A stretch of DNA of 40,323 nt from Klebsormidium nitens (Eukaryota > Plantae > Klebsormidiophyceae). Location of the stretch: the NCBI GenBank assembly GCA_000708835.1, contig DF237677.1, positions 1-40,323 on the forward strand. Reading direction: 5' to 3'. Positions 977 through 32,300 of this stretch are shown here, one piece after another. The number at the start of each line of letters is the position of its first letter. The stretch's first letter is position 1. The notes below the pieces were generated by a model, which had not been told where the DNA came from, ran no database searches, and was given only the letters and a program-made list of their open reading frames with translations. Position numbers and translations under genes: made by a program.

Positions 977-980
977 TTTG

Positions 981-4537: not shown

Positions 4538-4588
4538 GGTGTTGTTAAGAAGAGACAAATTCTTTCCAACATTACAACCATAAGTCAT

Positions 4589-11992: not shown

Positions 11993-12045
11993 ATCTCTTG
12001 ACCCTCTACCCAAAGAGCACTGTCCTAAGCCCATGGGCGATGCAG
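11537..12045 (+). other. top2 intron 2 (509 nt, GT-AG, phase 1), containing an antisense GNAT gene
   Basis: AAAG/GTGTGG ... GATGCAG/GTCTGGGC restores IKFLKGLGTSTAKDAK. Confidence 0.82.
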
Positions 12046-12471
12046 GTCTGGGCACGTCCACTGCCAAGGATGCCAAGGATATCTTCAGCAACATGAGCAA
12101 GGTCACGTACACGACCGACCCCGGGGCGGCAGCGGCCATGCAGCTGGCCTTCCAGAAGGCAAGGGCAAACGACAGGAAGAGGTGGATTGTTGAGGCGATC
12201 GCAAAACCAGCGCCGGAGCCAGTGGGAGAGCGGGTGACCCTCTCGGAGATGGTGGACACCGAGCTGGTCAACTACTCCATCGCCAATGTCCGGCGCTCCA
12301 TCCCCAGTGCAATCGACGGTCTGAAGCCCTCGACGAGGAAAATTGTCCACGTCAGCATCAAGAGAAACGTTCGGGAGGAGTTCAAGGTGGCCCAGCTAGC
12401 CGCAGCGGTCGCAGAGGGGAGTGCATACCATCACGGTGAGAAGCGAACCTCTTGCGCAGATGGAGCGCATG

Positions 12472-13222
12472 AGCAAGTGATTTCAACCCCCCTCCTATAG
12501 TCAAAAAAGGGGGGTCCCAAATTCTCAAACACTTTTCAAAATTAGTCTCCATCCGTGTTTATGCGTGAGCTTGCCGTGACCTACAAACCTATGCTTTCTT
12601 ACCGGAATGGTTATAGTGTGCTGGGAACTACCAAGTCTTAGGTCTTAGCTCTTCCTTCAGGGATGGCTTCAACACGCGTGCGCGCATAAGCAAGTCATTT
12701 CAACCCCCCTCCTATAGTCAAAAAAGGGGGGTCCCAAATTCTCAAACACTTTTCAAAATTAGTCTCCATCCGTGTTTATGCGTGAGCTTGCCGTGACCTA
12801 CAAACCTATGCTTTCTTACCGGAATGGTTATAGTGTGCTGTGAACTACCAAGTTTTAAGTCTTAGCTCTTCCTTCAGGGATGGCTTCAACACGCGTGCGC
12901 GCACAAGCAAGTGATTTCAACCCCCCTCCTATAGTCAAAAAAGGGGTCTCCCAAATTTCAAACACTTTTGAAAATTGCGCTCCATCCGTGTTTGTGCGTG
13001 AGCTTTCCGTACACTACAGACATTTAATTTCTTACTGGAATGGCTATGGAACGCTGTGAACCGTAAGTTTTTGGTGCAGGGATGGCTTAAACACACGTGC
13101 GCGCATAAGCAAGTGATTTCAACCCCCCTCCTATAGTCAAAAAAGGGGTCTCTCAAATTCTCAAACACTTTTGAAAATTGCGCTCCATCCGTGTTATGCG
13201 AAAAGGTTGGCCGTTGACTACA
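12472..13222. repeat. Non-coding tandem array, units of 217, 217, 202 and about 115 bp
   Basis: AGCAAGT(G/C)ATTTCAACCCCCCTCCTATAGTCAAAAAAGGGG starts at 12472, 12689, 12906 and 13108. Copies 1-2 have an ACCCCCCT/AGGGGGGT stem. Confidence 0.95.
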
Positions 13223-13223
13223 A

Positions 13224-13745
13224 TCAGACAACCCTTCGGAAATTGGAAGTGTTGAGGGTCTGACGGGTGAACGGGTTTCTCGCACCCTCGTGCAACCTTT
13301 GTAATGCGTCTTTGTGATACGCCCTCGGAGCCTTTCCACCCCTCAACTCGCTTTCAAGGTAGATGTAGTTCCTCCGGTTTGCGGGGCGCTTGTTCAAGGC
13401 CATGAAGTTTGTGTTGATGAAGTCCGTATCATTCGAGACGGCGCCTGCTCGACCGTTCCGCACACTAGCCATGTTAAGGCGCCTATGACAAGGAGCAACC
13501 TCCATAGTTGCAGGAGTCTCGTAACCGACGACACTGCGAGGCCCTTCGGAATGCAACGCCCAGACAACGAGGTCGCTCAATGACCACTCATCGTGCATAG
13601 GAGGCTCACCTGACTCCACGTAAACGACTTCAAAGAGCTCTGGTGCTACCAACCGAGCGGACGTGGTGGCACCGTTCTCATGCTGCAGCTGGATGACGTC
13701 TCCAACGTCCATATAACGCAAGGTCTCCCAGATCTCCCTCTCCAT
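13224..13745 (-). CDS. Hypothetical viral protein nested antisense in top2 intron 3; C-terminal D-F-I...Y...L...NPFTRQ motif
   Basis: Intact 173-aa ATG ORF. The C-terminus (NDTDFINTNF...YIYL...YHKDALQRL...RNPFTRQTLN) resembles short U-box-like tails seen in algal-virus proteins (recalled, not searched). Confidence 0.72.
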   Translation of the reverse strand: MEREIWETLRYMDVGDVIQLQHENGATTSARLVAPELFEVVYVESGEPPMHDEWSLSDLVVWALHSEGPRSVVGYETPATMEVAPCHRRLNMASVRNGRAGAVSNDTDFINTNFMALNKRPANRRNYIYLESELRGGKAPRAYHKDALQRLHEGARNPFTRQTLNTSNFRRVV

Positions 13746-13904
13746 TCAGCATAACACAGAACCAGAATTTACTTTTTGTTGCAGGTGAGGAGAGCCTGAG
13801 CGGCGCCATCATCAACCTTGCGCAGACGTTTGTGGGATCCAACAACCTCAACCTGCTCGAACCGGTCGGAATGTTTGGAACACGCCTGGCCAACGGGAAG
13901 GACA

Positions 13905-14184
13905 GTGAGTGCACTGCGTTTGAGCCGTGTTCAAAACCTACGTGCCAATGAAGGACAGCATGTCAGCCAAGTCACTGGTGGGAGCCCCTCACTACGCCAC
14001 CCTGGCATCATGTTACAGGCCTGTGGTGGCAACCAAAGCGCTCGGCATGCAAGATGCCGCGTGTCTTGCAGCTCATGGCGCAGCCCTCTCTGCATGCTGG
14101 TACATTGCCAATGACTATCTCGAACGTCAAAAGCTGAAGGAGAAGCGCAGGCAGCTCCTTAAGAAGCAACTTGGGCGACCGCAG
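13905..14184 (+). other. top2 intron 4 (280 nt, GT-AG, phase 1)
   Basis: GACA/GTGAGT ... CCGCAG/GTGCC restores NGKDSAAPRYLFT, five codons before the catalytic Tyr. Confidence 0.88.
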
Positions 14185-14217
14185 GTGCCGCGCCGAGATA
14201 CCTCTTCACGCACCTGA
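13948..14217 (+). CDS. Possible small protein nested in top2 intron 4 (hydrophobic segment plus basic coiled tail)
   Basis: 89-aa ATG ORF spanning most of the intron, with coding-like codons (YLERQKLKEKRRQLLKKQL); runs 33 nt into exon 5 in another frame. Confidence 0.4.
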   Translation: MKDSMSAKSLVGAPHYATLASCYRPVVATKALGMQDAACLAAHGAALSACWYIANDYLERQKLKEKRRQLLKKQLGRPQVPRRDTSSRT

Positions 14218-15212
14218 CAAAGGCTGCGCTCTGCGCCTTCCATCCTGCCGACGCCCCCCTCCTGACCTACCTCGAAGAGAACGGCAAGGCCATAGAGCCG
14301 GCCTACTTTGTCCCGACCGTGCCCTTGATCCTCCTGAACGGTGCCTCCGGCATTGGCACTGGCTTCTCCACGTACGTCCCCAACCACGCTCTGGAGGACG
14401 TCATCGCCAACATCCGGGCTATGCTGCAAGGCCTGGACCCGGTCGAGATGCACCCTTCCTGGGCTGGCTTCAAGGGGACCGTCCGGGCGACCGAGAAGGG
14501 AGAGTACGTCGTCTCCGGGGTGTACGAGAGGATCGACAGCAGCCGCATCCGCATCACTGAGCTGCCAGTTGGGACGTCAATCGACGCCTACAAGGCTTTC
14601 CTGGAGAGCGACAAGCTTGGGGCCCGTTCCATCAAAAACGACTGCACGGACGCGGTTGTTGACTTCACCGTGGAGTTCAGCACCGGGAGGCTCGAGGCCA
14701 TCCTGCCTGACATCGAGAGGGAGCTCTGCCTCACCAGGAAGCTGAGCACCAACAACATGCACCTGTTCGACTCGAACGGCCACATCAGGCGCTTCGAGAC
14801 CGTGACCGACATCCTGCGGGAGTTCTTCGGGGTGCGGCTGAGCCTCTACGAACGCCGCCTGCTGCACCTGATCCGACAAAAGGAAGAGGAGCTGGCTGCC
14901 TGCTCCTACCGGGCGCTCTTTGTGACGAGTGTGCTTGATGGGGGTGTCCGACTCCTGAAAGCCAAGGTGGCGGACGTCCGTGCCGACATGAGCGCGGCAG
15001 GGATCCCCGAGACCTACCATCAGCGGTTCATGTCGCTCCCCCTGTCAAGCCTGACGGCGGACGAGGTGGAGAGGCTCTTGGCAGCCAAAGAGGCCCTGGT
15101 GTCAGCCCTTGACCTCCTCAAGGGCAAGACGGCCCCGGCTCTGTGGGAGGAGGACCTGCTTGAGTTGGAGAGAGCGCGGAAAATTGGAGCATAGATAGCC
15201 TGGTTGCTTGGT

Positions 15213-15956
15213 ATGGACTTTGGAGTGTGCGCAGATGCCTCATGTAACGAGAGGGTTTACCAGAAACACGACCGGTACTGCATGAAACACTTTCAGATCT
15301 CACCGAATCAAAGAGTGCGCGACTTTGACATTACTGAGAAGACCAGCATGGATGCCATCATGAAGGACCTGCACGCTCTAACACGATACACGTGGTACTA
15401 CAAGCCCGACGAGGATGACGTCCAAGTTGCAGAGTTGTCCTTGCAATACGCTCTGCAATGGAAGGCTGTGAGCTACGATGCAATTGCCCGCCTGGCCGTC
15501 GTCATGCAGTACCTCTATTGCACAATGGCGGCCCTCGAGCCCGTTGACGTGTACCTAAACCCTTACTCTCTCCCGGAAGAGCCCGATTATCACCCACTCG
15601 GGGAGACCCGATCGTCCCTCATGTACCTCATAGAGAGCTGCGGGATCCACGCTGCAAAGTTCTCGGGGCTCTCTAGGAGCCTCCCTTTGGTTGCGTTTGC
15701 CAGGCGCCGCTGCTACAGGCAGGCAGCAGACGTCTGGTGGAAGAGCAGGTTGAAGCTCGAGGCTTTTCACAAGGCCCTCGGCTGGCTGTGGTTCACCCTC
15801 AAGCGCTTCACACAGGCAGCCTCTCTTGCCCGCAGAGAGGGCCTCGCAGCAAGGGAACGCACTGTCCTGCGCATGGATGCTGAGGTGCTCGGTGGGCTTG
15901 CCGAGACCCTGTTCAAAACTGCATTGCTGCACTACCAAGAGCTACTCACAGTCTGA
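15213..15956 (+). CDS. Hypothetical protein
   Basis: 247-aa ATG ORF with an N-terminal C-x4-C...C-x2-H cluster; packed closely after top2. Confidence 0.7.
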   Translation: MDFGVCADASCNERVYQKHDRYCMKHFQISPNQRVRDFDITEKTSMDAIMKDLHALTRYTWYYKPDEDDVQVAELSLQYALQWKAVSYDAIARLAVVMQYLYCTMAALEPVDVYLNPYSLPEEPDYHPLGETRSSLMYLIESCGIHAAKFSGLSRSLPLVAFARRRCYRQAADVWWKSRLKLEAFHKALGWLWFTLKRFTQAASLARREGLAARERTVLRMDAEVLGGLAETLFKTALLHYQELLTV

Positions 15957-15985
15957 AAGATTTTGTGGCATTGGTTACATAGAGG

Positions 15986-17770
15986 ATGCAAGTGACAATC
16001 GGGGACTTTGTAGACAAGTGGTTGGCGGAGTTGCGTGACGCACAATCGGAGGCTAAGAAGCACGAGTATAGCAGCGATACACGCCTGTACTATGAGAAGC
16101 ACGTGCAGGATTTGCTGGACGAGTTGGCAAGGGAGCTCGTGACTTACATTGAGCACCCACCGGGGTACGAGAGCAACGAGAAGGCCGGGATAACTGCCAA
16201 AGATGGCAAACTCGTTGTCGCTCTGGATGGCGACGATTACAACACGGCAAGCGAGGCGACCCGCAGCGCCCGCTTGAGCTTTGTGATGGGAAAGATCCTC
16301 AAGGAGAAGGGCACTCTGGCGCAGGGTGGCGATCTCAGCCTATACAATGCGGTGAGCAATCTCTTGAAACCATCGCGCCTGAGCCCTCCGCCTGACAGGC
16401 TTTCGCTCAACCCAGAGTACGTTGACTTCAACACAAAGAGCCTTCCTGACGCGCAAGAGGATGGTCAGACCCACATCTTCTACGATCCAGCAAACGTAAG
16501 CGACAACCTGGAGCTGAAGAAAGTCTTCCGATCAAGGGTGAACCTCGAAGATGTTGATCAGTACAGGAATGCCAATCACCGCTTTGGGACTACCTTGACG
16601 AATCGGTTCATGCACCCCGACTACCGGACACTTGACAAGCGCCTTGCAAACAGGGTTCCCCTCATGAACAAGAACACGTTTGAGAAGGGTAAGAGCAACG
16701 TGAAGGCTTGGGTTGCCAATCGGACTGCTCTTCCTCTAAACAAGAACGCATTCGAGAAAGGGAAAGGCAACATGAAGGCTTGGGTTGCCAGTCAGAACAA
16801 GCGAGTCAACAAGCAGGCTGATGTTGCGCTAAATAATCAAGGCCTGACTGCAACCGCTGAGGACAAACGCCTCATTGCTGAAAGCATACCTTTGGGAGAA
16901 GAGAGCACTGCAAAGGCTATTGCAAACGTGGCTCTAACCACCAACGGGGGCCCTCCCCCAGTGAAAGCAGTCAGTGGAGCCCTCAAGGACATTCTCCAGC
17001 CAGGACAGGTGACACCAGAATCTGTCGCAACAGTCTTCAAGCAGAACAACCTCGTAGCTTCCAAAAATGGTCACGAAAGTGTTGCAAATGTTGCAACAAC
17101 AGGAAACCCATCGGCCGTGCTTGCCGCGGTGGCGCAGGTTGCAACATTTCCTGCTGGTGGTGAGGCCCCAACTGAGGCAGTGGTTTCGGCCGCCAACGCA
17201 ATCAACAAGTCGGCAAAGGCCAATCACCAAACTCCCAACTTTGCAAACTTTGATAGGTCGCAGCTGGGCACGGGCACAAAGACTGGTCCGAACCTCAAGA
17301 CTCCCAACCAGTTGAATGCAAAGGGCGGCTCAAACGCTTCCAAGATGGCGGCAACTCAGGTTGCCCTGATTGGCAACGGATTCAGAGCAAACGGCCCGGA
17401 GGGACTCGCAAACATTGCAAAAAAGGCCGGAGCTCCAAATAAGGATCTGCGTGAGACAATTCAGAACAACACCACAGGTGCAAGGAACAATGTCCAGGTT
17501 GCAAATGCGGCAGAGGCTGTAAAGGTGCTCACAGGGTCTAAACTGTCAGAATCAATGGCTGCAAACGGGCTCAACAAAATCAACACCAGCAAGAATCCTT
17601 TCGTGTCCAAGAACAACAATAAGAACAAAGGAATCTCAGGATCGAACCTGTCAAACTCAATGGCGGCAAACGGATTCAACAAAACAAACACCACAAAAAA
17701 TCCCTTTGTGACCAAGAACAACACGGCCAACAAACCAATTGTAAGTTCAACCGGGATGGGCTGGAAGTAA
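15986..17770 (+). CDS. Asn/Ala/Lys-rich hypothetical protein with short internal repeats
   Basis: 594-aa ORF; duplicated PL(M)NKN(T/A)FEKGK.N.KAWVA and SMAANG.NK.NT.KNPFV.KNN. Confidence 0.8.
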   Translation: MQVTIGDFVDKWLAELRDAQSEAKKHEYSSDTRLYYEKHVQDLLDELARELVTYIEHPPGYESNEKAGITAKDGKLVVALDGDDYNTASEATRSARLSFVMGKILKEKGTLAQGGDLSLYNAVSNLLKPSRLSPPPDRLSLNPEYVDFNTKSLPDAQEDGQTHIFYDPANVSDNLELKKVFRSRVNLEDVDQYRNANHRFGTTLTNRFMHPDYRTLDKRLANRVPLMNKNTFEKGKSNVKAWVANRTALPLNKNAFEKGKGNMKAWVASQNKRVNKQADVALNNQGLTATAEDKRLIAESIPLGEESTAKAIANVALTTNGGPPPVKAVSGALKDILQPGQVTPESVATVFKQNNLVASKNGHESVANVATTGNPSAVLAAVAQVATFPAGGEAPTEAVVSAANAINKSAKANHQTPNFANFDRSQLGTGTKTGPNLKTPNQLNAKGGSNASKMAATQVALIGNGFRANGPEGLANIAKKAGAPNKDLRETIQNNTTGARNNVQVANAAEAVKVLTGSKLSESMAANGLNKINTSKNPFVSKNNNKNKGISGSNLSNSMAANGFNKTNTTKNPFVTKNNTANKPIVSSTGMGWK

Positions 17771-17821
17771 CAAAGTGCGTTCCATCTGTGGCAGTTTCTC
17801 CTCTGTAGCTTGGAGGAAACC

Positions 17822-18622
17822 ATGCTTCCAACCGATTGCATCCGAGGCATCAAGATGAGGATTGCTGCCCGAGTGCCTACACCCCCGGGGGCCATCTTCT
17901 ACACACTCCGAAGCGACGCGACCGGGATGTTTGACTCCTTTTACCGGCTCCGTTACGACCAGAGGGCCCTGGGCCGCTGCCTGATTGACCCAAGTAGCTG
18001 GACGATCATGCATGATTTCGGCCAAACGTGCCCTGGGGAGGACCCAAGGTGCATCTCGCACAGGGGCACGGACTACCTGCTGGACAACACCTGGGGCAGC
18101 AGCAGCTTGATCGTGCCAGCTGACAACTTCAAAGTGTGCAAGCTTCCCTCAAAGGGCAAGAACCTTAGCCTCATCTCTCACGGTGACGAGCTCCTCTGCA
18201 TCGAGTGGCTCCGACCCCTGACCGTTCTGTCAACGAGCGAGTCGCCCTACCCTGATACTTGGAGGCGGACAAGGGCCCGGAAGGAGATTCCGGACTACAG
18301 CCTGCGCGGTGGCACCCCTGGTTACAAGACCCCGGTCGACGGTGTATATGTCGGCTTTGGGCACCGGACGACGGCAGGCCCCAAGGGTGAGGTCAAACAC
18401 ACCCCATTTGCATGGCGGCTGGATGTCAAGAATTGGCAGATGAGCTTTGAAGAGGTGGGGGGGCAGCTCGAGCGGGCTATCACATACCCCACCTGTGTTG
18501 CACATCACAACGGGAGGCTCTACTTGGTCACTGCAGAATCCCACCTTCCCTGGTTCGGTGCCCTTCAGGAATTCTTTACATGCATATATGAGCTGCATTT
18601 CGGAGAAAATACAGCGGTATAG
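17822..18622 (+). CDS. Putative five-bladed beta-propeller glycoside hydrolase/phosphorylase (GH130-like)
   Basis: GEDPR motif, KN-hydrophobic motif, LRGGTP...YVGFGH. Confidence 0.55.
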   Translation: MLPTDCIRGIKMRIAARVPTPPGAIFYTLRSDATGMFDSFYRLRYDQRALGRCLIDPSSWTIMHDFGQTCPGEDPRCISHRGTDYLLDNTWGSSSLIVPADNFKVCKLPSKGKNLSLISHGDELLCIEWLRPLTVLSTSESPYPDTWRRTRARKEIPDYSLRGGTPGYKTPVDGVYVGFGHRTTAGPKGEVKHTPFAWRLDVKNWQMSFEEVGGQLERAITYPTCVAHHNGRLYLVTAESHLPWFGALQEFFTCIYELHFGENTAV

Positions 18623-18629
18623 GAGGCAC

Positions 18630-19643
18630 ATGGGGCTGTGCATTGGGAAGCAGAGAGAGCATGGGACTCAAGATCAACAACCATCGCCAGAGCAGGTTGT
18701 GCCAAGGGCAACCCTGTCAAACAAGGAGTTTGGATTCAACCAGCACTTTAAGGACATGTACACGGTCAAGGAGGAGATTGATCGCGGATCGTTTGGCAGG
18801 ACGCACATCGCAGAGGCCAAGTCACAAAAGGGTGGCACTGTGGCCGTAAAGATCATCCCAAAGAGCTCCATGATCAGTGAGGCCGCAATTATGGACGTGC
18901 ACAGAGAGGTCCAGATACTGAGCCTGCTGTCAGGCCACGAGGGGATAGTGGAGTTTATGGCAGCTTACGAGGACTTGATGAACGTGTACATTGTGATGGA
19001 GCTATGCCAAGGTGGTGAGCTGATGGATCACATCCTCAGCAACCAGGGGCCATACAAGGAGGCAACCGCAATCGAGCTGGTGTGGCAGATCCTCACGGCA
19101 GTTGCCTACATGCATGAGAAGAAAGTCATCCACCGCAACATCAAGCCTGAAAACTTCATCTTTGCCAACGAGAAGGACAACATCATAAAAGCGATAGACT
19201 TTGGGCTCTCCTACCGGTGTGAGGAGAACGAAACTATCAAAGAAGTGGTGGGCAGCCCATTCTTTGTCGCACCAGAGGTCCTAAAGCAGGCCTACAATCT
19301 CAAGGCAGACGAGTGGAGCGTGGGGATCCTGACCTACATCCTGCTGATTGGAACACGGCCATTCTTTGGGAGGACGGACTCGGAGATCTTCAAGGCCGTG
19401 CTGAGGGACGAGCCTGACATTGACAACGCGGACCTCAGCCTGCCCGCAAAAGACTTTCTGAAACGGCTGCTCAACAGGAACGTTGAGTCCAGGGCAACAG
19501 CAAGAGAAGCCTTGGATCACCCTTGGCTCAGAGATAGATCCGCAATGCCCGTTCAACAGGGCTGCGGCAGTAATGACACATGCTCCGCCCTCGATAGCAC
19601 TCGTCACATATGCAATGACCGCACGGAATCATTGCAAACCTGA
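18630..19643 (+). CDS. CDPK-related (CRK-like) Ser/Thr kinase domain without EF-hands; catalytic HRD reads HRN
   Basis: MGLCIGK myristoylation/palmitoylation-type start, VAVKII, YIVMELCQGGEL, HRNIKPENF, DFGLS, APEVL, EALDHPWL. Confidence 0.85.
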   Translation: MGLCIGKQREHGTQDQQPSPEQVVPRATLSNKEFGFNQHFKDMYTVKEEIDRGSFGRTHIAEAKSQKGGTVAVKIIPKSSMISEAAIMDVHREVQILSLLSGHEGIVEFMAAYEDLMNVYIVMELCQGGELMDHILSNQGPYKEATAIELVWQILTAVAYMHEKKVIHRNIKPENFIFANEKDNIIKAIDFGLSYRCEENETIKEVVGSPFFVAPEVLKQAYNLKADEWSVGILTYILLIGTRPFFGRTDSEIFKAVLRDEPDIDNADLSLPAKDFLKRLLNRNVESRATAREALDHPWLRDRSAMPVQQGCGSNDTCSALDSTRHICNDRTESLQT

Positions 19644-20091
19644 CCTGGGCGTGAGTGCAGACCGGGCACTCCCCGCATATGTCTGGATTGATTGCCCGTT
19701 TCATCTTGCTCGTCACCTCGTAGAAAACAGCCACTTTTGCGTGTACTTGTTCCAATCGGATTACCCTCTCAGTCAACTCCCTTTCCAGCCCGTTCTTCAC
19801 ATCTTTGACAAGGCTTTGTATGACTTCCATGGCTGAGGCCTCGTGCACGTGATGCATGACCTTGGACAAACCCTCCTCAAAGGTTAGCAGCTTCCGGCGG
19901 GCCTCTTCGACCTCCTTGCCACAGGCCTCCTGCTCTGTCTGCAAGGGCTTTATGAGGCGATCGACCTCCAGGGAAGCCTTGGCAAATGCGGCAGCATTGG
20001 GCAGGTCCGCAAGAAACATCCAGTCGTTGATCGAGTTTGATTCCAACAGCGAATAGTCCTCCTGGCCATTGTAAGCTGGCGTCATCTCCAT
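19528..20091 (-). CDS. Coiled-coil plus C3HC4 RING-finger protein (putative E3 ligase)
   Basis: CPVC...IPCGHCICDEC...CHYCRSPV; its 3' end overlaps the kinase 3' end by 116 nt. Confidence 0.85.
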   Translation of the reverse strand: MEMTPAYNGQEDYSLLESNSINDWMFLADLPNAAAFAKASLEVDRLIKPLQTEQEACGKEVEEARRKLLTFEEGLSKVMHHVHEASAMEVIQSLVKDVKNGLERELTERVIRLEQVHAKVAVFYEVTSKMKRAINPDICGECPVCTHAQVRFAMIPCGHCICDECYRGRSMCHYCRSPVERALRIYL

Positions 20092-20118
20092 GAGAGGCCT
20101 CGCGACTTTTGGGACCCA

Positions 20119-21315
20119 CTAGAAACGTGCAGAGGCCCCCACACTTGTCAGGCGCTGGATCCCTTGGTTGGGCTTCAGTGCCTGGTCCCTCACGCGCCGC
20201 ATCATGCCAAGCTTGTTGAGGAAGTCCGAAAACGAGAGATCGCATGTCACATAAACAGATAGAGAATTGGAGATGGACAGGACCGGCAACACGGGGTCCC
20301 GGAACAGCCGAGAGACCCGCCCTAGCAGCTTGCTCTTGCGGCTGTCACGTGCCACCTCGAGCTCGTGCTTGACCGATGCCCGAAAGGTGTGCATCCCCTT
20401 GTCTTGGAGAAGCCACATCGTGTCGAGCTGCATGTCGGATACGTCCCCAACTCCCGAGAGGTCGTCCAATCGGTTGCATCTCAAGGTGGATGCACCATGA
20501 TGAGCATCACAGCTGTCAGGAATGTCCAACTTTGCAGGCTCTTTGACCGACCAATCCACCAAGCTGCAAAAGCTGCCTCCGTAGAGGTCGACCTGGCCCC
20601 TGTGACGCACCTGCCCACCCGCCTCAGTTGTTGCTGTACATGTGGCAGAGAGGAGCACGCGCAAGACTTTTGTACTGCATCCGGGATCCTCTCCGTCTGC
20701 TTCCCCGAGTGAAGCTTTGAGTGTCAGGTCAGCCACGGCACCCCTTGATGATCCTTTTGAGGTCGAACTGAAGCACTGGATGATGTAGCTCACGCCCCTC
20801 GCGAGCTGCCCACGTCTCTGAAAGGCTTGCATCGACGGGTTCTGCCTCACGCTTGCAACCCTAGCCCGCTTCCACTCTCGGACGAGCTTGTATCCAGACC
20901 TCTGCCAAGCACGCGACTGGGTGTAGGCGTCAACTTTAGGGGCTTCAGGCTCCTCAACCATGTGGACACGAACCTTGATGGGGCTGTGGGGGTGAAAGGT
21001 GACCGAGACATCCCAGGACCCTTCCAAACCAAGTCCGAGGAGCCGTGACATGTGAGAGGCCTCTACAAACCGAAAGTCCATACGGTTGGCATTCTTGTCA
21101 CGGCTCAGGCTGCTCTCCTCGGGGTCGTGAGAGGTTGCGTTCTTCCGGGCCTCTTGAGAGTACGGCCCATCTCGGAACCAGTACAGGAAGCAACTCTCTT
21201 CAAAGGCCTGCTCCTCGTTTTTTGGGAGCTCTCCCTTTAAGCGCGCATCGATCAGATGGTCAACGGCCATCCCGTCCCCAGCGTTGGCTGCTGCAATGAG
21301 CCGACCCCACTCCAT
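20119..21315 (-). CDS. Hypothetical protein
   Basis: 398-aa ATG ORF packed closely with the RING gene; no motif recognised. Confidence 0.7.
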   Translation of the reverse strand: MEWGRLIAAANAGDGMAVDHLIDARLKGELPKNEEQAFEESCFLYWFRDGPYSQEARKNATSHDPEESSLSRDKNANRMDFRFVEASHMSRLLGLGLEGSWDVSVTFHPHSPIKVRVHMVEEPEAPKVDAYTQSRAWQRSGYKLVREWKRARVASVRQNPSMQAFQRRGQLARGVSYIIQCFSSTSKGSSRGAVADLTLKASLGEADGEDPGCSTKVLRVLLSATCTATTEAGGQVRHRGQVDLYGGSFCSLVDWSVKEPAKLDIPDSCDAHHGASTLRCNRLDDLSGVGDVSDMQLDTMWLLQDKGMHTFRASVKHELEVARDSRKSKLLGRVSRLFRDPVLPVLSISNSLSVYVTCDLSFSDFLNKLGMMRRVRDQALKPNQGIQRLTSVGASARF

Positions 21316-21388
21316 CTGTCATACTGTACAAGAAAAACAGGTTGCAGAATTCTCGTCCCACTTTTTTTTGTGATGCCATTCCACGGCG

Positions 21389-21670
21389 ATGGCTTCTCAA
21401 GTCAAGAAGTACAGGCTAGAGCGGAGGCAGGTCATGAAGTCTGAGAAGGACCACACCTCGTCGGGCCTCAGGAAGGATGACCTTATGTACAAGAGTCATG
21501 ATGGAAAGTCCAGGACTATCGTGTCCCGCAAGAGGCACGAGAATGCCTTGAACAATCCTAAACTCCAGGCGTGGTTGGACCACGTCAAGAGCGTTTACGA
21601 AGACATCAAACCCCTCGGCAAGACATACAAGGATGCCATGCAGCTCGCTGCAGCCACCTACAAACGGTGA
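21389..21670 (+). CDS. DVNP-like (dinoflagellate/viral nucleoprotein) basic DNA-binding protein
   Basis: T-S-S-G-L-R-K-D-D-L-M ... IVSRK ... L-Q-A-W follows the DVNP pattern T.GGL.K.DL...IVSK...W. Confidence 0.72.
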   Translation: MASQVKKYRLERRQVMKSEKDHTSSGLRKDDLMYKSHDGKSRTIVSRKRHENALNNPKLQAWLDHVKSVYEDIKPLGKTYKDAMQLAAATYKR

Positions 21671-21707
21671 AGTACCATGCCACTTTTTCTACCCGTATCA
21701 CAGAACG

Positions 21708-22535
21708 ATGATTCTCTTCCTTGTGCTCCTATCTTTAAGCAGCTGCGTAGTTTCTCAGGAGCAGGGCTGGCTGGCGGGTACCGCCACTTACTACACAGGA
21801 GTTGACGATGTGTCCGGCGGTTATGCTGGAAATTGCGGCTTCTCAGATCTCAGCCGCAACATTGCTGGGATCCCGGGGGCCACCTACGGCCCTCTCTTTG
21901 CAGCCGGCAGCGATCAACTCTACAAGGGCGGAGCAAACTGCGGGGCATGCTACGAGATCAAGTGTCTAGAAAACCCTGTGTGTACCGGCAAGACCATCCA
22001 GGTCACCATCACCGATTACTGTCCGACTCAGGGCAACGAGCAGTGGTGTGGGGCCGATAAGCACCATTTCGACCTCTCGGGAAAAGCATTCAGCGAGCTG
22101 GTCAGCACGATGGCGATCGGCCACTTTGAGCTGCAGTACCGCCGAGTGCCTTGCAAGAAGACGGGGCCGCCTGTTGTATCAATCGAAGGCAATCCCTACT
22201 GGCAATCCCTTCGAGTCCTGAACTTGGCAGGTGGGGGCGCGTATAATGCGATGCTCATCCGCTCACCTGGAGGCCAGTACGTCCCGTTGAAGCGGGACTG
22301 GGGCACGAGCTTTGTTCACAATGGTCAAATTCAGGCTCCAATCTCGGTGAAGCTCTTGGTTAATGACCCAAAGAGCGAGGTCGAACTGATTGATTGCGTG
22401 CCAGTGGGATGGGTTGGCGGAGAGTACGCTTGCAAGGACAGCAGTAGTACTGTACACACGCCAGAGAGCAGGAGGATGACGATCCAGGACAACAAGCAGC
22501 GCCTCCAATGCAACTGCACGTGTGCCACCTTCTGA
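21708..22535 (+). CDS. Secreted plant-type expansin (DPBB plus CBM63 domains)
   Basis: Signal peptide; ATYY, GNCG, CGACYEIKC, TITDYCP, HFDLS, YRRVPC, LKRDWG. Confidence 0.9.
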   Translation: MILFLVLLSLSSCVVSQEQGWLAGTATYYTGVDDVSGGYAGNCGFSDLSRNIAGIPGATYGPLFAAGSDQLYKGGANCGACYEIKCLENPVCTGKTIQVTITDYCPTQGNEQWCGADKHHFDLSGKAFSELVSTMAIGHFELQYRRVPCKKTGPPVVSIEGNPYWQSLRVLNLAGGGAYNAMLIRSPGGQYVPLKRDWGTSFVHNGQIQAPISVKLLVNDPKSEVELIDCVPVGWVGGEYACKDSSSTVHTPESRRMTIQDNKQRLQCNCTCATF

Positions 22536-22571
22536 GAGACTTATTTTGTTGGTTTATATCTGCAGTCCATC

Positions 22572-22865
22572 ATGTCAACTAACAAGACGTCAGGCTACGT
22601 CGACAAGGCCGTCGGAGCTTCAAAGCAGGCCGCAGGGAAGGTCTTCAGCAACCGCCTTGAAAGCCAGGGTGGCGCACAGCGTGAGAAGGGGCAAGCAGAG
22701 ATAGACGCTGCAAACGCTCGGAAGCAGGCAGAGGCCACTGGCGACAAGGTTGCAGGAACGGCAAAGCAGGTTGCAGGATCTGTCACAAACAACACGAGTC
22801 TGGCTAACGAGGGCAGGGCTGAACGTCTATCAGGCAAGCAGAAGGGGGCCCGTAACGAGTTTTGA
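22572..22865 (+). CDS. CsbD-like / LEA-like small hydrophilic stress protein
   Basis: Two G..K...G repeats (DKAVGASKQAAGKV, DKVAGTAKQVAGSVT...EG.AE...G). Confidence 0.7.
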   Translation: MSTNKTSGYVDKAVGASKQAAGKVFSNRLESQGGAQREKGQAEIDAANARKQAEATGDKVAGTAKQVAGSVTNNTSLANEGRAERLSGKQKGARNEF

Positions 22866-22870
22866 AGACT

Positions 22871-23281
22871 CTAGTGGATCCTTTCGAGATAGAACTGGTT
22901 CGAGATATCGTGCTGTCTTGATGTGTTCAAGGGAATTGAAGTCGGATGTTCCGAGTAATATAGAATCAAATATGGTGGATCGTCCTTTGTGGGCGAGGAA
23001 GGACCACAAAGACCTACATACTCGATCACTTTAGGTCGAGGAACCAGTTCATGCGCCAATATATCTCGTATAGAAAGAGCATCAGCTTGTGCTAAAGTGA
23101 CACCATCATCATCGTCAGAGATGTCGAATCTGTTCTCTCCATCGAGCCTCTCAATCTCGTAGGTGCTCCAGTTCTGAGTGCCAGGCGGCCGAGCCAAGAT
23201 ACGCAGCCTAAGGCGGCTGGTGCTGCGACTCATCATCAACATTGCGTCCGAGATTAACTGGAAGATCTGTGAGCGGTTCAT
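22871..23281 (-). CDS. Hypothetical protein
   Basis: ORF of about 136 aa from MNRSQIF; acidic patch DDDDG; no family recognised. Confidence 0.5.
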   Translation of the reverse strand: MNRSQIFQLISDAMLMMSRSTSRLRLRILARPPGTQNWSTYEIERLDGENRFDISDDDDGVTLAQADALSIRDILAHELVPRPKVIEYVGLCGPSSPTKDDPPYLILYYSEHPTSIPLNTSRQHDISNQFYLERIH

Positions 23282-23316
23282 TCGTTTTTGTATCATACAA
23301 GCATTTTCTCTCAGCA

Positions 23317-24109
23317 TCACCGACTCGGTAGCAAGGACAGCCTGGTCAAACGGATTGTGTTGATGGCTGCTGACAGCATCTCGGCATCACAGTCCATCGC
23401 ATATCTCACGCGAAAGCACCGTACGTGCTCGAGTTCCAGGGGCGACACAGAGGGAATCAAGAGGGGAAATGCCTGATGCCGTATGCATTTCGCTTGAACC
23501 GAACGGACCCCCCCTCGGCCAGTGTGTATGTATTCATAAGCGTATCTGGTCAGCGCGGCAGGGTCCGGCCTGTCACTATGGTAGAATGTTTCGCAAATCA
23601 TCGCTTCGATTGCTTTCGTTCTTGCCAGCTTCTTCTTCGCCTTGTTAATCCTCTTCTGCAGCTTCTCCAACAGAGCTGCAAGATAGGTGGCGGGCGAGCC
23701 AAATTTCAGGATGCCTGCTACCACAACATCTTCAAACCCGTAATGGATGAGCTTCCCGATCCGGTTTGAGGTCCACAGTCTCAACAAGGAAATGGTGCCG
23801 TGCCATGTCTGAACGCATTGCTGCGCTATCCCAGCCACCCCAGACGCCCGAGAAGACAAAGTGCAAATTCAGGTGGCCTCTGGCATTTACTTGAGCATCA
23901 TAATCCGAGTCCCACGCATATTTGCGCTCCCATTGCTTTGGGGGCCCTGTTGATTGTGTGGCTGCACGACGCCTGGCCGCATCCCGTGCCATGTCCCAGC
24001 TGTCACCAACGGCCTGCTTGAAGCCCTGTGAGACACACGCCAGTGAACAGAGGGTTTTGACGTCGATTGAAGAGTGCATGTGGAGGAGCTGAACCAACGT
24101 CGACTCCAT
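23317..24109 (-). pseudogene. F-box-like protein, probably one gene frameshifted near 23760
   Basis: The 24109-23732 frame begins with an F-box-like IDVKTLCSLACVSQGF. A second frame (IGKLIHYGFEDVV...) stays open to 23317. Confidence 0.45.
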
Positions 24110-24195
24110 TCTGTAAGAAGGTGCAGGAAGTTGGTGCGTGGGCGGCGCACGGTCAGGAGCTTAGGACTAGCTTCACATGCACTGGAGTATTCGCA

Positions 24196-24924
24196 ATGGA
24201 GCGCCTGAGAAGATATCACAACATGGTTAAGACCAAGGCGTTGAGCGAAGCTCTTCAAGGCCGGGACGCTCCCAACACCTCCCTGCTTGACCTGGCATGT
24301 GGGCCAGGTTCAGATTTGCACAAGTGGCATCGGCTTGGGATCCATGATGCGATGGGCTTGGATGCCAGCGAGGAGGCCATCCTAGAAGCGCGAAAGCGGA
24401 ACAAGACATGCAAGACAGCCTACCGTTTTGTCATCGCAGATGTTTGCAATCGGCTGGAACGGTATGCAAGACAGGAACGCTGGGATGTCATCACATGCAA
24501 CTTTGCAATCCACTATCTCATGGAAGATCCAGAGAAGTTTGCCAACCTCCTCAGTGCAGTCAGTGGCGCATTGAAGCCTGGTGGATATTTCATTGGCACT
24601 GTCCAGAACGGTGATAGGGTGGATCAGCTTATGGGCAACAGCAGCAGCTACAGGAACAACATCCTCAGTGTGCGGCGGGCGGGTGACATTGTGGAATTTG
24701 ACATGCACGGCACGTACTACTTTGAGAATGGAGCCAGCAGAGAGATGTTGGTATGACCAGAGAACATCATAGGTCCTGCCTTAACAGCAGGGCTCAGTTT
24801 GAAGCGCTGGAGTAGCTTCCCTCAATACCTACCAACCCCACAGGACTACCCAGAAGATGAGATTGTGATTTCAACAATGTATGACACGTTTGCTTTCTAC
24901 AAAAGGCCTTTCAGCTGTTCCTGA
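24196..24924 (+). pseudogene. mRNA cap guanine-N7 methyltransferase with in-frame TGA at 24754-24756
   Basis: LRRYHNMVK, LLDLACGPGSDLHKW, GLDAS, DVITCNFAIHY, LKPGGYFIGT. After the TGA the frame continues PENIIG...MYDTFAFYK to 24924. Confidence 0.85.
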
Positions 24925-24934
24925 TATCTATTTG

Positions 24935-25539
24935 TCACTCAGCAAGCTGGAGCAGCTCCGGAGAAGTGTTCAGAACTGTGTCAGCTCTAGCCTTGTAACC
25001 TTCGAAGAGACAGTTGGCAGCTGCCACGAATGCTCTGATTCCTTCACAGAGCTCAAACTCTGTGCAGCTGCCAGTCTCTCTGATGAGCTCAATCTCAGAC
25101 TCCTCAAGAGACCTTGCTATGCACTCCAGAGCCCAAACATCAAAGTCCACATGAGCGTAGGGGATGGCACCATGCTTGTGCACCGCTGATAGGAAGTTGT
25201 AGAAGGGCTTTGAAAAGTCATCAAACCCGTCCATGAGCTGGAGATATGCAGACCCAGCACGTTCCCAGTCCGCCTTGGTCTTTAGCTGAACTGGCAGGTC
25301 CTCGATCCAGCAGGGTTCGTCTGCAATACTGATCTCGGCATCAACTTTTGGGACCGCACTCTCCAGCACCTTGCGCACGCGCCCTGATCACGCGACTGAC
25401 GGGCTGGATCAATCCCACCGAGGATTTCTCTCAGTAACTTTGACAGCCTTTTTGAAAGTGTACAGGGCACCGCGGCAATTGGGCCGCCGAAGGTGAGCTT
25501 GAGCAGTCGGAGTGGCCGGTTTGTCAAAGACGGAACCAT
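24935..25539 (-). pseudogene. Hypothetical protein, probably frameshifted near 25385
   Basis: The 147-aa frame 25378-24935 has no ATG; an ATG frame from 25539 overlaps its start. Confidence 0.35.
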
Positions 25540-26376
25540 CTATCGAGGGTTTTCGTGTCGATTTTGAGCTGATCCACGACATGGTGCATAGCACATCCGA
25601 TTCGCATAAAGCTCATGCATGCAAGTGTTTGAAAGTTGCACTTGGATGCAGGCGTGTGGAGATGTGCAGCCGGAAAAGAAGAGCAAAATGGACGGCCAAG
25701 GGTAGATTGTGGCAAGGGGAGAACTTATTGACTAATTGACCTTGTAAGACTACCCAAAAGCGAACAGTATTCTGTGGTACTAAGCAATCTTCGATGCTTG
25801 GCGGCGGCTAAAGAGCCAGTCAACTTTGGAGTACTGCCTTTTTGGGTGTCCCCGTTACATCACATGGGCGACAAAGTGGGCGAAAATGGGAATGAAAACA
25901 GTAAGCCACTCTCGACCACCTTCGACATCATGAGAGACCCTAAAGAGTAGGACCGCCCACATGTCGTTTTCTCCCGCCAAAGCAGTTGTTGCATATTACT
26001 CAAAGGCCAATTTGCGTTCAACATCAGACTGGCCTGCTGATGCATACTCGTAGATATTTATTCCATTTACTCAATCGGTCATGTATGATGGCAGGATATA
26101 TTCATTCCTCTATATCCAGTTCAGAGCGTCGCATCACCTTTTCCCAAAGGGTATATGCCACAGTACTAACTCCAGTCCTGAACACTCTTAAATCTCAATT
26201 CTGGAACTGTGGTATTGATGCTCGGTGCCTAATTCAACATTGGCAAAAATGGGACGAGCTTCTTCAGATGTTGTTTTTCAATAGGGCTGTCCATGACTTT
26301 CTCCATGTTTTGAAATCCAATCCAAATTTTGTTTTACTAAGTGACTGCACAACGAGGGCCCCAAGTTCGGCAAAAG

Positions 26377-29300
26377 CTAGAACACATCTTGAATAAACAG
26401 CGCCCAAAGCTCGGCCGAAAATGCAAAAATTGTGGCGCACTGAGGCCACAGCATGCTCCAGTGCCTCTTCCCTAGTTTGCGCGTAAGGGCTAAACTCAGG
26501 CCCATGCCCCCGGCCAAAACCGCTCCTTGAAGCAAACCCACAACGGAAGGGTCAGCAACCGCAATTGGGAGCCCCGAGTCTCGAAAGCCCACCGTCGCTG
26601 CTGTGACCGGGAGAAGGGTTCCCCCCTCAACGAGGAGAAGGGGCAAATAGTGGGCTAGCGTGGCGCTCCACACTAGCGGCAAGTATCCATATGCCAGGTG
26701 CAGAAAGGGTGCGGGTGCGAGAGTCCGTTGGGTGTGGTGGTACAGGCGATTGAGGGCATCGACGCAATATGAGATGACGCCCGGGAGCGATAGGAGACCG
26801 GCGGCAACCGCGATGTGAATGGGCTTTGAGTCGATCAGGATGGGGTCAAAACCGAACTGGCTCAGAAGGTTTGGCGCTCGGTGGAGGTAGACTGCAGACA
26901 CAAAGCAAATGAACGGCCTGAGACTTCAAAAGGGGACCCTCAGAGTCCAAAAGCGGAACGTTTCCTTGACTGATTCATAGTTAAGATCGCTTGCATAAGT
27001 GTGCGTGCAGACGTGGGATAGATAGATTGGAAACGGACCAAAGATGAGCGTTAAATGTAAAAGTAGAAAATCGGAAATCGGAACTCTTATCTGACAGATC
27101 CATATCTCAACGACGAAGAAATGTAACTGTATCCGCATGACCATGTGTGGTTTGAATGCAGGAAAGAGACTATAGGCGTGCCAAAGCAGGACGTCAACGT
27201 CTAAGACACGACTTTTGATATTCAGATACTTGACCTCGCTTACTTGCAAAACGAAACCAAATACTTGCCAAAACCGCCTCGATCAAATACAAAGCCGTCT
27301 CGGATCACACAAACCGGCATCGATCACTTGCACAGCCGCTGCATCAATCCAACCTCCAAAAGCGATGCCAAAGAGGACAGAAAGTATAGGGAGAGAAGCG
27401 AGGCACGTTGTGCTCAAATTCTCCAAGAGAGACAATACGTAAGGGGAACTGGGCTGAGGCAAAATAGATGGAAGCCAAGTAGAGAAACACCTCTTGCTTG
27501 AGAGCATGGCGCAGTCTCCGATACGGTCAATTTATGGTGGTCCATGTTCAGCTTAGGGTTTACAATCGAAAGCGAGAGATTAGGTAAAGAGGGAAAACAT
27601 ACCTCGGTCCAGGCGCATAGACATGAGCACAATATCGAACACAGCCAGCTTGTGGGCAGTCCAATGCTGGATTGACTCTTCATAGTAAAGGGTAGATGAG
27701 GAAGACCAGTTTGACGGAAAGTCAAAGCGAAAACCATACATCCGCCGAGAAAAAAGAACGTGAGCGCGACCTCTGTCGCAGCCGGCTTGTGGCTGGTTCA
27801 CCTGACTTTTCTCAAGGAGACAAGCGTGAAACAGAACGTGAGATAAGGAAGGTAGAAGCGAACTACACCTCCGCCTAGGAGCATGAACATGAGGGCGACC
27901 TCCGACACGGCCGGCTTGTGGGTCGTCCAGAGATCGACCCCGGGGGCCCTCAGGTTGAACTGCACGCTAGTGTGAGGGCACGCTTTGAGGCAGTCCATAC
28001 ACAGGGTGCAGTCCTTGTTGTCGACCAGCTGGGCGGGGTGGGAGTGGAGGGGACACCCCGAGGTCTTCAGGCCCTCGGGGGGCTCCGCGGGGCCTCCCTT
28101 GTAGCAATGGTACGTCTGACACGTGGCTGCAGGTGGATAAAAACATGTCAGCAGGAGCTGTTGTTGTTTTCTTCAACTTCCCTGCTTGTACTCTGCTCTT
28201 AAGATCCCTTCCCTGCAATTCTTTTCACCGTCGTTCCCCCGTCCTATGATCTTACAATCGCACTCCTATAGAATTCCTGCGCAGTGGTCAGAGCGAAGGG
28301 GGCAGACTCCGTCGCTAGGCCCTCTTGGTTTGTCCTTATAGTAGTGATACGTCAGCCGAATTGGCCGCAAGCAAGTACTCAATGATCAAGTGCGCACGTA
28401 CAGCAATGTACGGCAGACCCAGACAGATGTTCGAAGGAGGGGGCGCCCAAATGATGAGTCTTTTCAGGATAAAGAGAGTCTCTTCCTGCAAAGAGACCAC
28501 GTGTCTCTATCTCGCCAACACCAGATGTTGCATCCAATGAGCGACTTGGCTTGGGACAGGTCTTCTGGCACTCAAAGACCCCACAGATCTTCGAGCAATG
28601 CCCAGCGTTTGGAGATTGCTCCGAGAATGTTGGCCTCTCAGACACTTTCCAAACGCTAGGGATTGGGTCTCCCTTCTCAACCGAACACACCATTGGCTTG
28701 CACGCAATTCCAATCTTGATTCTTAGCGGAGAGGCCGTTTTACATTACGAAGGCACAACAGCGGCACCTGCTAATCCTCGGCACCAAATCTATTCTGGCC
28801 GCCTACAATCTTGAGCTCCTAAGATTCTGAATTAAGTGCGCTCCTTGTCCGAGCACACGCCCTGCCGTGCAAGCAACTCTCGGATCGAAGTCTTAGCGAA
28901 GAAGGCAGTCATGTCATCTTTTGGGCACCAGCTAGCCCGTGCTCGGAAACTGCTGGGAAGTAAGCGCTACGAATAAAGGCGTCGAGATTTTGCTGTTTAC
29001 TCGTTAGCTCAGTACATGCCCTGTAATGACCGCAACTTCCGCCATTAACAATCTCGCAAAGAGGCTGTTCAGGTTGCGCAGCAGGAGAGGAGCTCGCTTT
29101 GTGCCGAGAACTTCACAGCATTCGAGTGCTAAAAGTTCGAAGAATTGGGCCCTTCTTTCAGTCCACAGCAAGGAAACCCACTTGCCACTTGCGTACTCCC
29201 GACATTGTCGTCTTAGCAATAGGGCCGTTCATGCAGCCAGTTTTGCACAGATAGCGGCATCACAGGTGGCGCTCAAAGCGGCCACCTACGAATGGCGCAT

Positions 29301-32300
29301 ACAATTTGAGGCTCTAGGGTTGTGTGTCAATCCTGAGCACATGCCTAGAACGCACGTATTTCCATCTTCAATCTTCGACATCTTGGCGAACAGGCACTTC
29401 AGAGCGCTAATCAGCACAGAGAACAGGCGCTCTGAAGTGGCTACTAAATTTAAACGCGTCAAATTCGAGGTCCTAAAAATTGGAATCACTCCTCACCTGA
29501 GCACACGCCCTGCCGCGCGCGCACTTCCGTCATCGACATTTTAGCAAATAGGCCGTTCATGCCCCCAATGGGGCACAGGTACCGGCACCAGAGCCGGCGC
29601 TCAAAGATGGCAGAACAGATGACGGCGCCTGACGTGATGAGGATGAGGAGGCCGCCAGAGAGTGCGGCATGGGTGCTGAGGTGCCATACATCCTCCCAAA
29701 GTAGGATCCCGGCGAACATGGCAAACAAGAACCAGGGACCCCATGCTTCAGCTGCAAGGAGAACATGGTTGATCTCTTGTCGCCTTGAAGGGATAAGGCC
29801 TTGAACACCCAATAAGAGACCAAAATATGAGCAAAGCGAGCAGAGAAGTGGAAATAGGGGTACCAGCAAGCTGACAAAGAAGCGTGGGTGCAGAGGTTGG
29901 CCCTCGTAGAAGTCCTTCTTTGGAGGATTGAGAATCAAAGGGAAAGAGGTTGCAGAACGTGCGGCTGGTTGCGTTGGTCCTAACACCTGAGCGTCGAAAG
30001 AAGCAAGGTCTTCGCAAATGTGGACACGTTCCTAAGTTCTGCAAGCAATACCGGATTAAAAATAGGAACTGAGCCCACTGCACCTGTCTCCCGAGGCCAC
30101 TTCAAGAGCTGGGCGCCCCTACTGAGCCGCCACCTCTGTACCAATTCTCCATAAATCATGAAGGGACATACTGCAGTAGCAGAGATGGGTAGGTCAGATT
30201 GTAGAAACCGGTGGTCATGGTAAGCTTGCATATATATTACTCGAAAGCTGACAAGACGGAGATTTGAAGGCCTTCAAAGCGGATGTAAACCAACGAGTCC
30301 ACACTGTGCTCCTAGAAACGTCCTGCGGGGTTACAAGTTGTCCGGAGAGTACGTCGGCTCCTTGGGAGACGCGAGAAGAGAAATCCGTGTTTTGGACTTG
30401 TAATGTGACGTTATTGCAGAAGCATCTGCGCAAAGTCTTTTGAGCACACTCTTTTGGATGTCATTGGAGTTAACGAGTGTGTCAGAACAAGAGGCTGTCC
30501 ACTCTGCTGAATCAAAAATCGAGACGTTTAGGTGCCAGGCGAGTTATAAATCCTGGTACAATGTTTGGACTCAGAAGACAAGCCCTAAACTGGAAGGCTC
30601 ATAAAAGCACAGGCCACGATTGGGCTAAATACCGTCAAGACGATGTTCCGCCCGATAAGGGCCCAAAACCAGAAAGCCGCAGATAGGAAGGAAACAAGAG
30701 GGGTTGATGAGCGGATTGTACTAGCGCACCAGATGTGGCTCAGGAAGGGTTGGCCTAGACAGGTGGGCCCAGAAGAGCGTCGATCAACATCATAAGAGTC
30801 GTTCAATAGAGATGAACAATCAATCCGCAACAAGAGGGAAAATGACAAAAGCTACCGTGCACCAGAGGCGGCCTGCGAACGGGTAGAACAGGAAGACCAA
30901 AGTGGTCAGAGTAGAGCTACGATGATGTCGAGGCAAAGAAATAGATACAAAATTGGAGAAGGAGCCTTACTAGCACACCATACGCGGCCCAGGAACGGGT
31001 ACATGAGGAAGATGACCGGCCACCAGTAGGCCCAGAACACAGTCAGAACGACATTGTGCTCCCGGTCCTGGGGCCCGAATAAGAGGAGGCACACCCCTAT
31101 GGCAAAGGCGTAGGCGGTGAAGCGGAAGTTAATCTCCTTGGGCCAAATGTCGCTCCGGAGAAAGGTGCGCAGGGGGGGGTACGCCTTGAGGAGGTCGAGC
31201 CGGAAGGGGTCATGCCCTTGCTGCGAAAGATGCGGCCAGGCTTAAAGTGCCACTTGCAAGCGCAAAGCAAAAACGAAGCTCTTTGGCTTTCACAACTGAC
31301 GAGTAACCGGACAGGAAGTATGTTCAATGTGCCGGGTACCAAACTAAGTCAATTGAAAGGTTGTAGACACTGATGGACGTACCTAGGCCTATAGGCCCAT
31401 GCAAAGCTCGACGAACTTTTCATGCACATAAGACTCATTCCCCCATCAAAACCACAGTTCCAAAACTAATTCCAAACCTTGGACCTATGAAAGGCCAAAA
31501 GCAACCAGCGTTGAAGACTCTTTGCACTTGCTCAACGCAAAACCCAAGCCTCTAAAAATGAACCCATACCTTGGTCGTGTCCCACAGGACGTCCGCAGTC
31601 AGCTGCGTCTCGTCGTCCTGCACGTTGCCTGCCGCCCTCTCAAGGACTGCCTGGAGCTCCTTGATGTTGCCCGGGAAGGGGCTCGTTTCTAAAGTGCGCA
31701 GTGCATCGGAGGTGGGCACGATGGGCTGTGAGCGGTGCTCGAGGCAGTACTGCTTCAAAAAGTAAGCGGTTAGGTCGGGGATGTCGGAAGGGCGCACTCG
31801 GAGTGGGGGCACCTGAAAGGACGAAATACGGGATCTAAAAGTTGAAGTGGGAATAGAAAAGTAGAAGCAGAAAGGAATAAAAGTGAGTAATAAAGTATTG
31901 GTAACAGACAGACTGAGAAAGTACTTGCAACACGCACTTGGACAATGAACAACCCCGATTCTACCTTCACCAATGCAACTGGGCGATCGAGGCACCAGAA
32001 GTTGGCGCTTAGGTTGGCAATGTTGGAAAGGTGCACCTGGAGCGGGTGACAGAACAACGCAAACGATGTCTTATTCGTCTTGCTATCTGTTACTTGAATT
32101 GACTGAATGGAATCAAATGTAACTTTGTGTTCCATACTGCACTCTGTCAACCGAGCAACCTTCAGAGGAGCGGTTAGGGGGAGAATGTTAAAAGGGCACA
32201 CATGGAGGGGAACCAGAAGTGGAATGAAACCCTTGCTCATCCAAAACTCGGTACTCCAATGAGAGTGTCTGTTTCTAAGCATATTCGATATACCTTGCAT

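Follow-up and report, generated by a model that had tools for sequence, protein, structure and literature searches.

Gene content of the expansin locus

An intact, intronless gene for a plant-type expansin lies at positions 21708 to 22535 of a 40,323-nucleotide stretch of Klebsormidium nitens DNA (assembly GCA_000708835.1, contig DF237677.1), referred to here in its entirety as the window. The gene sits among viral-type genes that are joined on the right to host DNA, and the main features are as follows.

1..25368, no strand: block of NCLDV type with closely spaced genes, most of which are single ORFs, continuing past the left end of the window
21389..21670, forward: DVNP-family gene, upstream neighbor of the expansin gene (PF19060, E 1.3e-11)
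21708..22535, forward: expansin gene (P0001), 275 amino acids, intronless and intact, from ATG at 21708 to TGA ending at 22535
22572..22865, forward: CsbD-like gene, downstream neighbor (PF05532, E 5.6e-12)
25369..25497, no strand: right boundary of the viral insert, as inferred from the divergence of the X5 contig and the end of the X16 transcript
25497..32324, reverse: spliced host gene with 4Fe-4S and AAA-lid pieces (Pfam), upstream limit approximate

The expansin frame contains no internal stop and no intron. An in-frame ATG at 21633, which would give a product of 300 amino acids, was rejected as the start because it overlaps the DVNP gene and because close relatives begin at the position of 21708.

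The original prediction placed the expansin between viral-type genes, and this is what the annotation of the block returned: the DVNP and CsbD-like genes adjoin it, and genes for the ribonucleotide reductase (RNR) small subunit, topoisomerase II, and an mRNA cap methyltransferase lie farther away, together with a MIP-family gene, a kinase, and a RING protein. The GC3 of the expansin gene (0.67) is within the range of its viral neighbors (0.60 to 0.73). The block has the look of an endogenous NCLDV element, in that its viral-type genes are closely packed, poor in introns, and continuous with host DNA. No family match to a capsid protein, polymerase, packaging ATPase, D5, or VLTF3 was obtained among the 28, 15, and 48 window ORFs scanned, so we base the assignment of the virus to a family on genes outside the core set and on an earlier report (PMC5294986). 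The topoisomerase II gene, at 9639 to 15194, matches in five pieces across three frames and is broken by a tandem repeat of approximately 217 bases (12465 to 13200) and an opposite-strand ORF (13224 to 13745), so the block is decaying. The absence of lesions claimed at the outset thus holds for the expansin gene itself and fails for the block around it.

The right edge of the insert was placed between 25369 and 25497 because a related contig from run X5 departs from the window sequence after 25368 and a host transcript contig from run X16 stops at 25497. A 10,431-base contig from run X1 spans this edge without any differing letter, and X1 may be the source of the window itself. Beyond the edge, the joints of the host gene have CT..AC ends in two RNA-type runs. 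In X16 and X19, RNA-type runs with the same species label, the host gene was covered and spliced over 25.5 to 30.2 kb, and no contig covered 19.4 to 25.2 kb; such contigs prove presence, not absence.

Sequence and predicted fold of the expansin

The encoded protein is divided into four parts, all on the forward strand.

21708..21755, forward: predicted signal peptide, residues 1 to 16 (hydropathy and the start shared by relatives)
21768..22157, forward: domain 1 (DPBB), residues 21 to 150 (Pfam, motifs, alignment)
22170..22436, forward: domain 2 (Expansin_C, CBM63-like), residues 155 to 243 (Pfam, model, alignment)
22440..22532, forward: C-terminal tail of 31 residues ending in CxCxC, low model confidence

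Residues 1 to 16 form the most hydrophobic segment of the protein (Kyte-Doolittle 11-mer value of 2.8, compared with at most 1.5 past residue 25), and hydropathy gave no second such segment. The mature start, S/A-Q-E-x-G-W, is common to the expansin and its close relatives, and cleavage is likely between VVS and QE. The signal peptide of the original prediction is therefore best described as a signal-like hydrophobic start that relatives share; its designation as a putative signal peptide comes from these two observations.

Pfam matches above the curated cut-offs were obtained for DPBB_1 (residues 65 to 131, E 8.9e-16), EXPB1_D1 (E 2.7e-10), and Expansin_C (residues 157 to 222, E 5.4e-7). Domain 1 contains the motifs TYY at 27, GNCG at 41, CGAC at 78, TD at 102, and HFD at 120 to 122, the last preceded by an alpha-type CP..WC loop (C105 to C114). 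Among the 14 cysteines of the protein, C43, C78, C81, C86, C92, C105, and C149 reach a conservation of at least 90% in 120 relatives, as does H120. Domain 2 carries the aromatic residues Y164, W165, W198, and W235, of which the first three align with aromatic positions of structures 7wvr, 1n10, and 2hcz, positions that we take to form the cellulose-binding surface. Of the features by which membership in the expansin superfamily is judged, a DPBB domain followed by Expansin_C, the HFD aspartate, a T-x-Y motif, the domain 1 cysteines, and an aromatic surface in domain 2 were present. The intact, intronless plant-type expansin first read from the sequence was confirmed at its exact coordinates, with its cysteine pattern and HFD motif.

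A two-domain expansin fold is predicted by a structure model built from a 120-sequence alignment (mean pLDDT of 90.3); an earlier one built on 12 sequences reached a pLDDT of only 54 and was discarded. The top 10 Foldseek matches were all expansin-fold proteins, the best being EXPB1 (2hcz, E 2.4e-18), with which the model aligns across 244 columns, and the top three ESM Atlas clusters were streptophyte expansins. The closest sequences in the PDB were likewise Phl p 1 (1n10) and EXPB1 (Zea m 1), so that these two are the top solved structures by both sequence and fold, but they are only 27 to 28% identical to the expansin and do not have the C105 to C114 loop. Since no solved EXPA occurred among the structure matches, the rank of EXPB1 and Phl p 1 does not set the subfamily.

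Alpha expansins are marked by a cysteine-bearing insertion before HFD and the absence of the EXPB insertion. The protein has a signal-like start, DPBB and Expansin_C domains, HFD, and the CP..WC loop in common with plant EXPA, including charophyte members, and, as in EXPA, the EXPB-type insertion after HFD is absent in an alignment with named EXPA and EXPB proteins. It differs from plant EXPA in its identity of approximately 30 to 35%, its placement outside the land-plant EXPA clade, its intronless gene, a 7-residue insertion after GNCG, and the CxC tail. On these sequence features, the expansin is best described as alpha-like in a wide sense that takes in charophyte members. Microbial EXLX proteins of bacteria and fungi, non-plants that meet cellulose walls, have the same two-domain fold; unlike them, the expansin has the cysteines of plant expansins in place and clusters with sequences from charophytes, and its score against the bacterial-type EXLX1 family NF041144 (40.7 bits) is below the cut-off of 100. 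Chloroviruses, which infect walled green algae, encode barwin/DPBB proteins (Q84565, A7K8Y4, and A7J8G5) that have the DPBB fold but correspond to domain 1 only, match weakly (E 4.5e-3 to 1.1e-2), and have no Expansin_C domain.

Phylogeny of the expansin clade

Word-based searches returned 12 and later 15 clade proteins at 44 to 91% identity, along with two partial ones. A profile search returned 1576 proteins at an E value of at most 0.001, in which four clade representatives scored 278 to 436 bits (two of these formed part of the query), ahead of the next best protein at 189. An unrooted tree was calculated from 60 rows picked from the matches; P0004 and P0018 (both chimeric), P0027, P0044, and P0057 (all partial), near-duplicates, and most representatives without a name were left out. 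In this tree the expansin falls into a distinct clade of 16 rows (support of 100/99), and both the land-plant EXPA and the land-plant EXPB groups fall outside it; the phylogenetic check proposed with the original prediction thus separated the gene from both. An earlier FastTree of 143 rows recovered the same clade. Its sister is a pair from Chara (97/88), one row of which has an odd composition.

The clade is divided into subclade A, with 8 rows including the expansin (97/94), and subclade B, with 8 rows including P0013 (95/85), and the terminal CxC is present in both. Its members are encoded on contigs of at most 78 kb from Logan and JGI. Gene calls at JGI are unspliced, so the JGI members are probably single ORFs. 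The label "viral" is extended by inference to 14 of the 16 rows, those with unread surroundings, and the split into two subclades would have taken place inside the viral lineage. A further four Logan proteins (P0038, P0101, P0132, and P0147) form a clade of their own (100/96) and have a GN..WC loop in common with the viral clade.

Other copies and the origin of the gene

Copies of the locus were compared in four runs (X1, X5, X8, and X9) and then in four more (X10, X11, X16, and X19). The order DVNP-expansin-CsbD recurs on a different contig of 60,194 bases, where the model P0018 fuses all three in the manner of the public model of the window locus, with identities of 91% for DVNP, 85% for the expansin piece, and 79% for the CsbD region. 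In X1, a 764-base contig running from the expansin into the CsbD-like gene has 109 differing letters and represents a second copy. Run X5, which bears another organism label, contains two expansin versions, a 789-base piece with 21 differing letters and a 384-base piece with 59, as well as fragments of the genes for the kinase, the RING protein, and the methyltransferase. A 252-base contig in X11 reaches from DVNP into the start of the expansin gene, three 151-base pieces with 3 to 5 differing letters occur in soil metagenome X9, and X10 yielded just two 151-base pieces near the expansin gene. A DVNP relative (P0196; 84%) and an expansin relative (P0002) are each encoded on a 2833-base contig, probably one and the same. 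Among the differences listed in the ORF, 15 of 20 distinct ones, a subset drawn from the best 40 supported rows of each of two tables, were synonymous, compared with 28% expected (p 2e-5), which suggests that the expansin has been kept under purifying selection. As a separate observation, the viral pieces in X11 (21388 to 22500) are approximately 91 to 95% identical to the window, compared with approximately 81 to 82% for the host-gene pieces (26401 to 29668), at a depth of 2 to 4; if one organism is behind these pieces, the contrast hints weakly at a transfer of the virus from one algal host to another.

The expansin gene is very probably virus-borne, to judge from its sequence and context. 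The original prediction proposed capture by the virus before integration and named, as marks of a retrocopy that entered later, a near-identical host gene and absence from other copies of the virus. Neither was found: the order DVNP-expansin-CsbD is kept in other copies, and word-based and profile searches, of a set in which no intron-bearing K. nitens expansin was identified, gave no near-identical host gene, with named algal expansins at approximately 31 to 37% identity. That a host retrocopy landed in the insert after integration would agree with an intronless gene of plant type in an alga that has intron-bearing expansins, but the same gene order stands in diverged copies under other organism labels, the stem of the clade is long, its internal split is near 50% identity, and no near-identical parent occurs among the relatives searched. 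The repeated gene order, the diverged copies, and the mostly synonymous differences together lead us to reject a single late retrocopy, an origin that we regard as extremely improbable. It is also very unlikely that the gene arrived with the virus and stays intact because the host now keeps and uses it. The expansin is intact where topoisomerase II is in pieces, and the other K. nitens models of the clade (P0013, P0018, and P0027) look partial or rearranged, both of which speak for host use; against this, the neighboring DVNP, CsbD, kinase, MIP, and RNR genes are open frames too, no introns have entered the expansin gene, and its GC3 resembles the values of the viral genes around it. The copy in the window is instead probably a passenger of the decaying insert.

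Searches for free viruses that carry the gene gave none. Scans of IMG/VR with the protein and with the alignment returned no expansin relative, a DVNP scan of the same resource returned no virus with an expansin gene, and no expansin match was present in 149 viral loci (2.29 Mb) fetched via RNR and topoisomerase. A metagenome scan gave 37 loci, all distant (best segment at 23 to 43%) and none a clade member. The RNR and topoisomerase scans reached distant viruses only, with best identities of 65% for the RNR small subunit (a GVMAG contig) and 51% for a topoisomerase II piece (an IMG/VR contig). The expectation that this would not be a standard NCLDV gene agrees with the empty IMG/VR scans and with BFVD, in which no two-domain match and only single-domain DPBB proteins were found.

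Earlier reports and annotation of the locus

The core idea was published in 2017 and is not new here. In section 3.4 of that report (PMC5294986), two expansins are described in NCLDV-like contigs of K. flaccidum, now K. nitens, and viral capture and wall crossing are proposed; the passages of that section contain no expansin tree, fold, or selection test. The published pair and the expansin of the window have in common the host species, the kind of insert, and the idea of capture and wall crossing, but the pair is flanked by VLTF3 and a phycodnavirus-only gene, whereas the flanks here are DVNP and CsbD, and the window ORFs gave no VLTF3 match. Judged by record names, contig sizes (137,706 and 29,316 bases), and mutual identity, the pair is probably P0013 and P0027, in or matching sister subclade B; these are 75% identical to each other over 106 residues, and P0013 is 53% identical to the expansin. 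What is new here is the second subclade, the spread in metagenomes, the C-terminal CxC tail, the evidence for selection, and the misannotation.

The public model for the locus (P0004, 21389 to 22865) fuses DVNP, expansin, and CsbD into a protein of 393 amino acids with two false introns and lacks the expansin's signal peptide as well as its final 62 residues. We reject this fusion, since the three ORFs have their own starts and stops and relatives of DVNP and the expansin exist as separate proteins. A 2024 expansin survey (PMC11547041) lists seven K. nitens EXPA genes. One row, at 21389 to 22865 with 394 amino acids and 2 introns, is the fused model counted as a host EXPA; another, of 250 amino acids, fits P0013; and the remaining five have 4 to 7 introns. 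The words "virus" and "viral" do not occur in the main text of the survey, and through it the misannotated locus reaches the plant expansin phylogeny and the question of expansin origins. No further viral expansin appeared in the available parts of 10.1101/637728, PMC11244446, and PMC10762512, and the phrase "viral expansin" had no match in the literature covered, outside which subscription journals lie.

Possible roles of a probably virus-borne expansin

An intact viral expansin, which can be directly expressed and assayed, bears on how large DNA viruses cross the cellulose walls of streptophytes. Expansins hold on to cellulose through domain 2, and their domain 1 lets glucan contacts slip without hydrolyzing them. 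The alpha-type expansin would have passed from a charophyte alga to an ancestor of the virus, probably via mRNA because the gene has no introns. The signal peptide would route the protein through the endoplasmic reticulum, where its disulfides would form, and on to the wall; there the aromatics of domain 2 would bind cellulose, the HFD aspartate of domain 1 would slip glucan contacts without hydrolysis, and turgor would then burst the wall or open the cross-walls of the filament. That the virus-carried expansin is exported to the infected cell's wall and loosens this wall for the release of progeny seems to us an evenly balanced proposition. We prefer a role in release or in spread along the filament to one in entry or an accessory one, a preference held with middling assurance, and release is placed before entry because the signal-like N terminus and the 14 cysteines fit a secreted protein.

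The original prediction named entry as well as release. In an entry role the expansin, on or in the virion and perhaps tethered by its C-terminal cysteines, would open the wall from outside. The gene adjoins that of DVNP, a DNA-packing protein of viruses; the terminal CxC, which in subclade B follows a Ser/Thr/Pro-rich linker, could be a tether; and chloroviruses have single DPBB/barwin-fold proteins. Entry is nevertheless doubtful, as a putative cleavable signal with no second hydrophobic segment would be more in keeping with a secreted protein than with one packed into particles that assemble in the cytoplasm, and expansins loosen walls by slow creep rather than by boring holes. The entry-type reading is that of the 2017 report (PMC5294986). 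An accessory role, in which the protein would boost wall hydrolases, swell the infected cell, or bind surface glucan and would not itself cause rupture, seems rather unlikely. Microbial expansins of the same fold are weak looseners with roles in adhesion, and the aquaporin-family gene in the block would suit control of cell volume; against this, a Pfam-type scan of the window ORFs found no wall hydrolase, and every plant-type motif is retained in the expansin. Release remains the favored role. More broadly, we give about even weight to the joint reading in which an uncultured giant-virus lineage of Klebsormidium-type algae carries an old expansin family of its own, with two paralog subclades and a CxC tail common to both, which is maintained under purifying selection and breaches cellulose walls without hydrolysis, its fossils being two of the seven K. 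nitens "EXPA" genes on which the 2024 survey drew to place the origin of plant expansins.

Additional features of the block

The MIP/aquaporin-family gene (4589 to 5410, forward strand) is an open frame of 273 amino acids with NPS and NPA motifs, and together with the expansin and CsbD-like genes it could make up a viral toolkit for water, wall, and drying. An intronless Ser/Thr kinase gene (18588 to 19643, forward), which we take to resemble calcium-dependent kinases, is probably another host-derived gene of the virus. The ORF at 3446 to 4537 (forward) has a weak match to PD-(D/E)XK endonucleases (E 0.007) and ends in an 81% copy (4466 to 4521) of the 3' end of the RNR gene (3112 to 3170), an arrangement such as insertion of a mobile endonuclease close to that end would leave. 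In run X8, the region from 17800 to 26000 is covered by many short contigs with an excess of C>T (327) and G>A (344) over other changes, which could come from a bisulfite-type library of methylated DNA or from deaminated copies. Two copies of the 9-mer CCACTTTTT are present in the window, one at 21358, 31 bases ahead of the DVNP start, and one at 21680, 28 bases ahead of the expansin start; the 9-mer is a possible shared promoter element, proposed from these positions.
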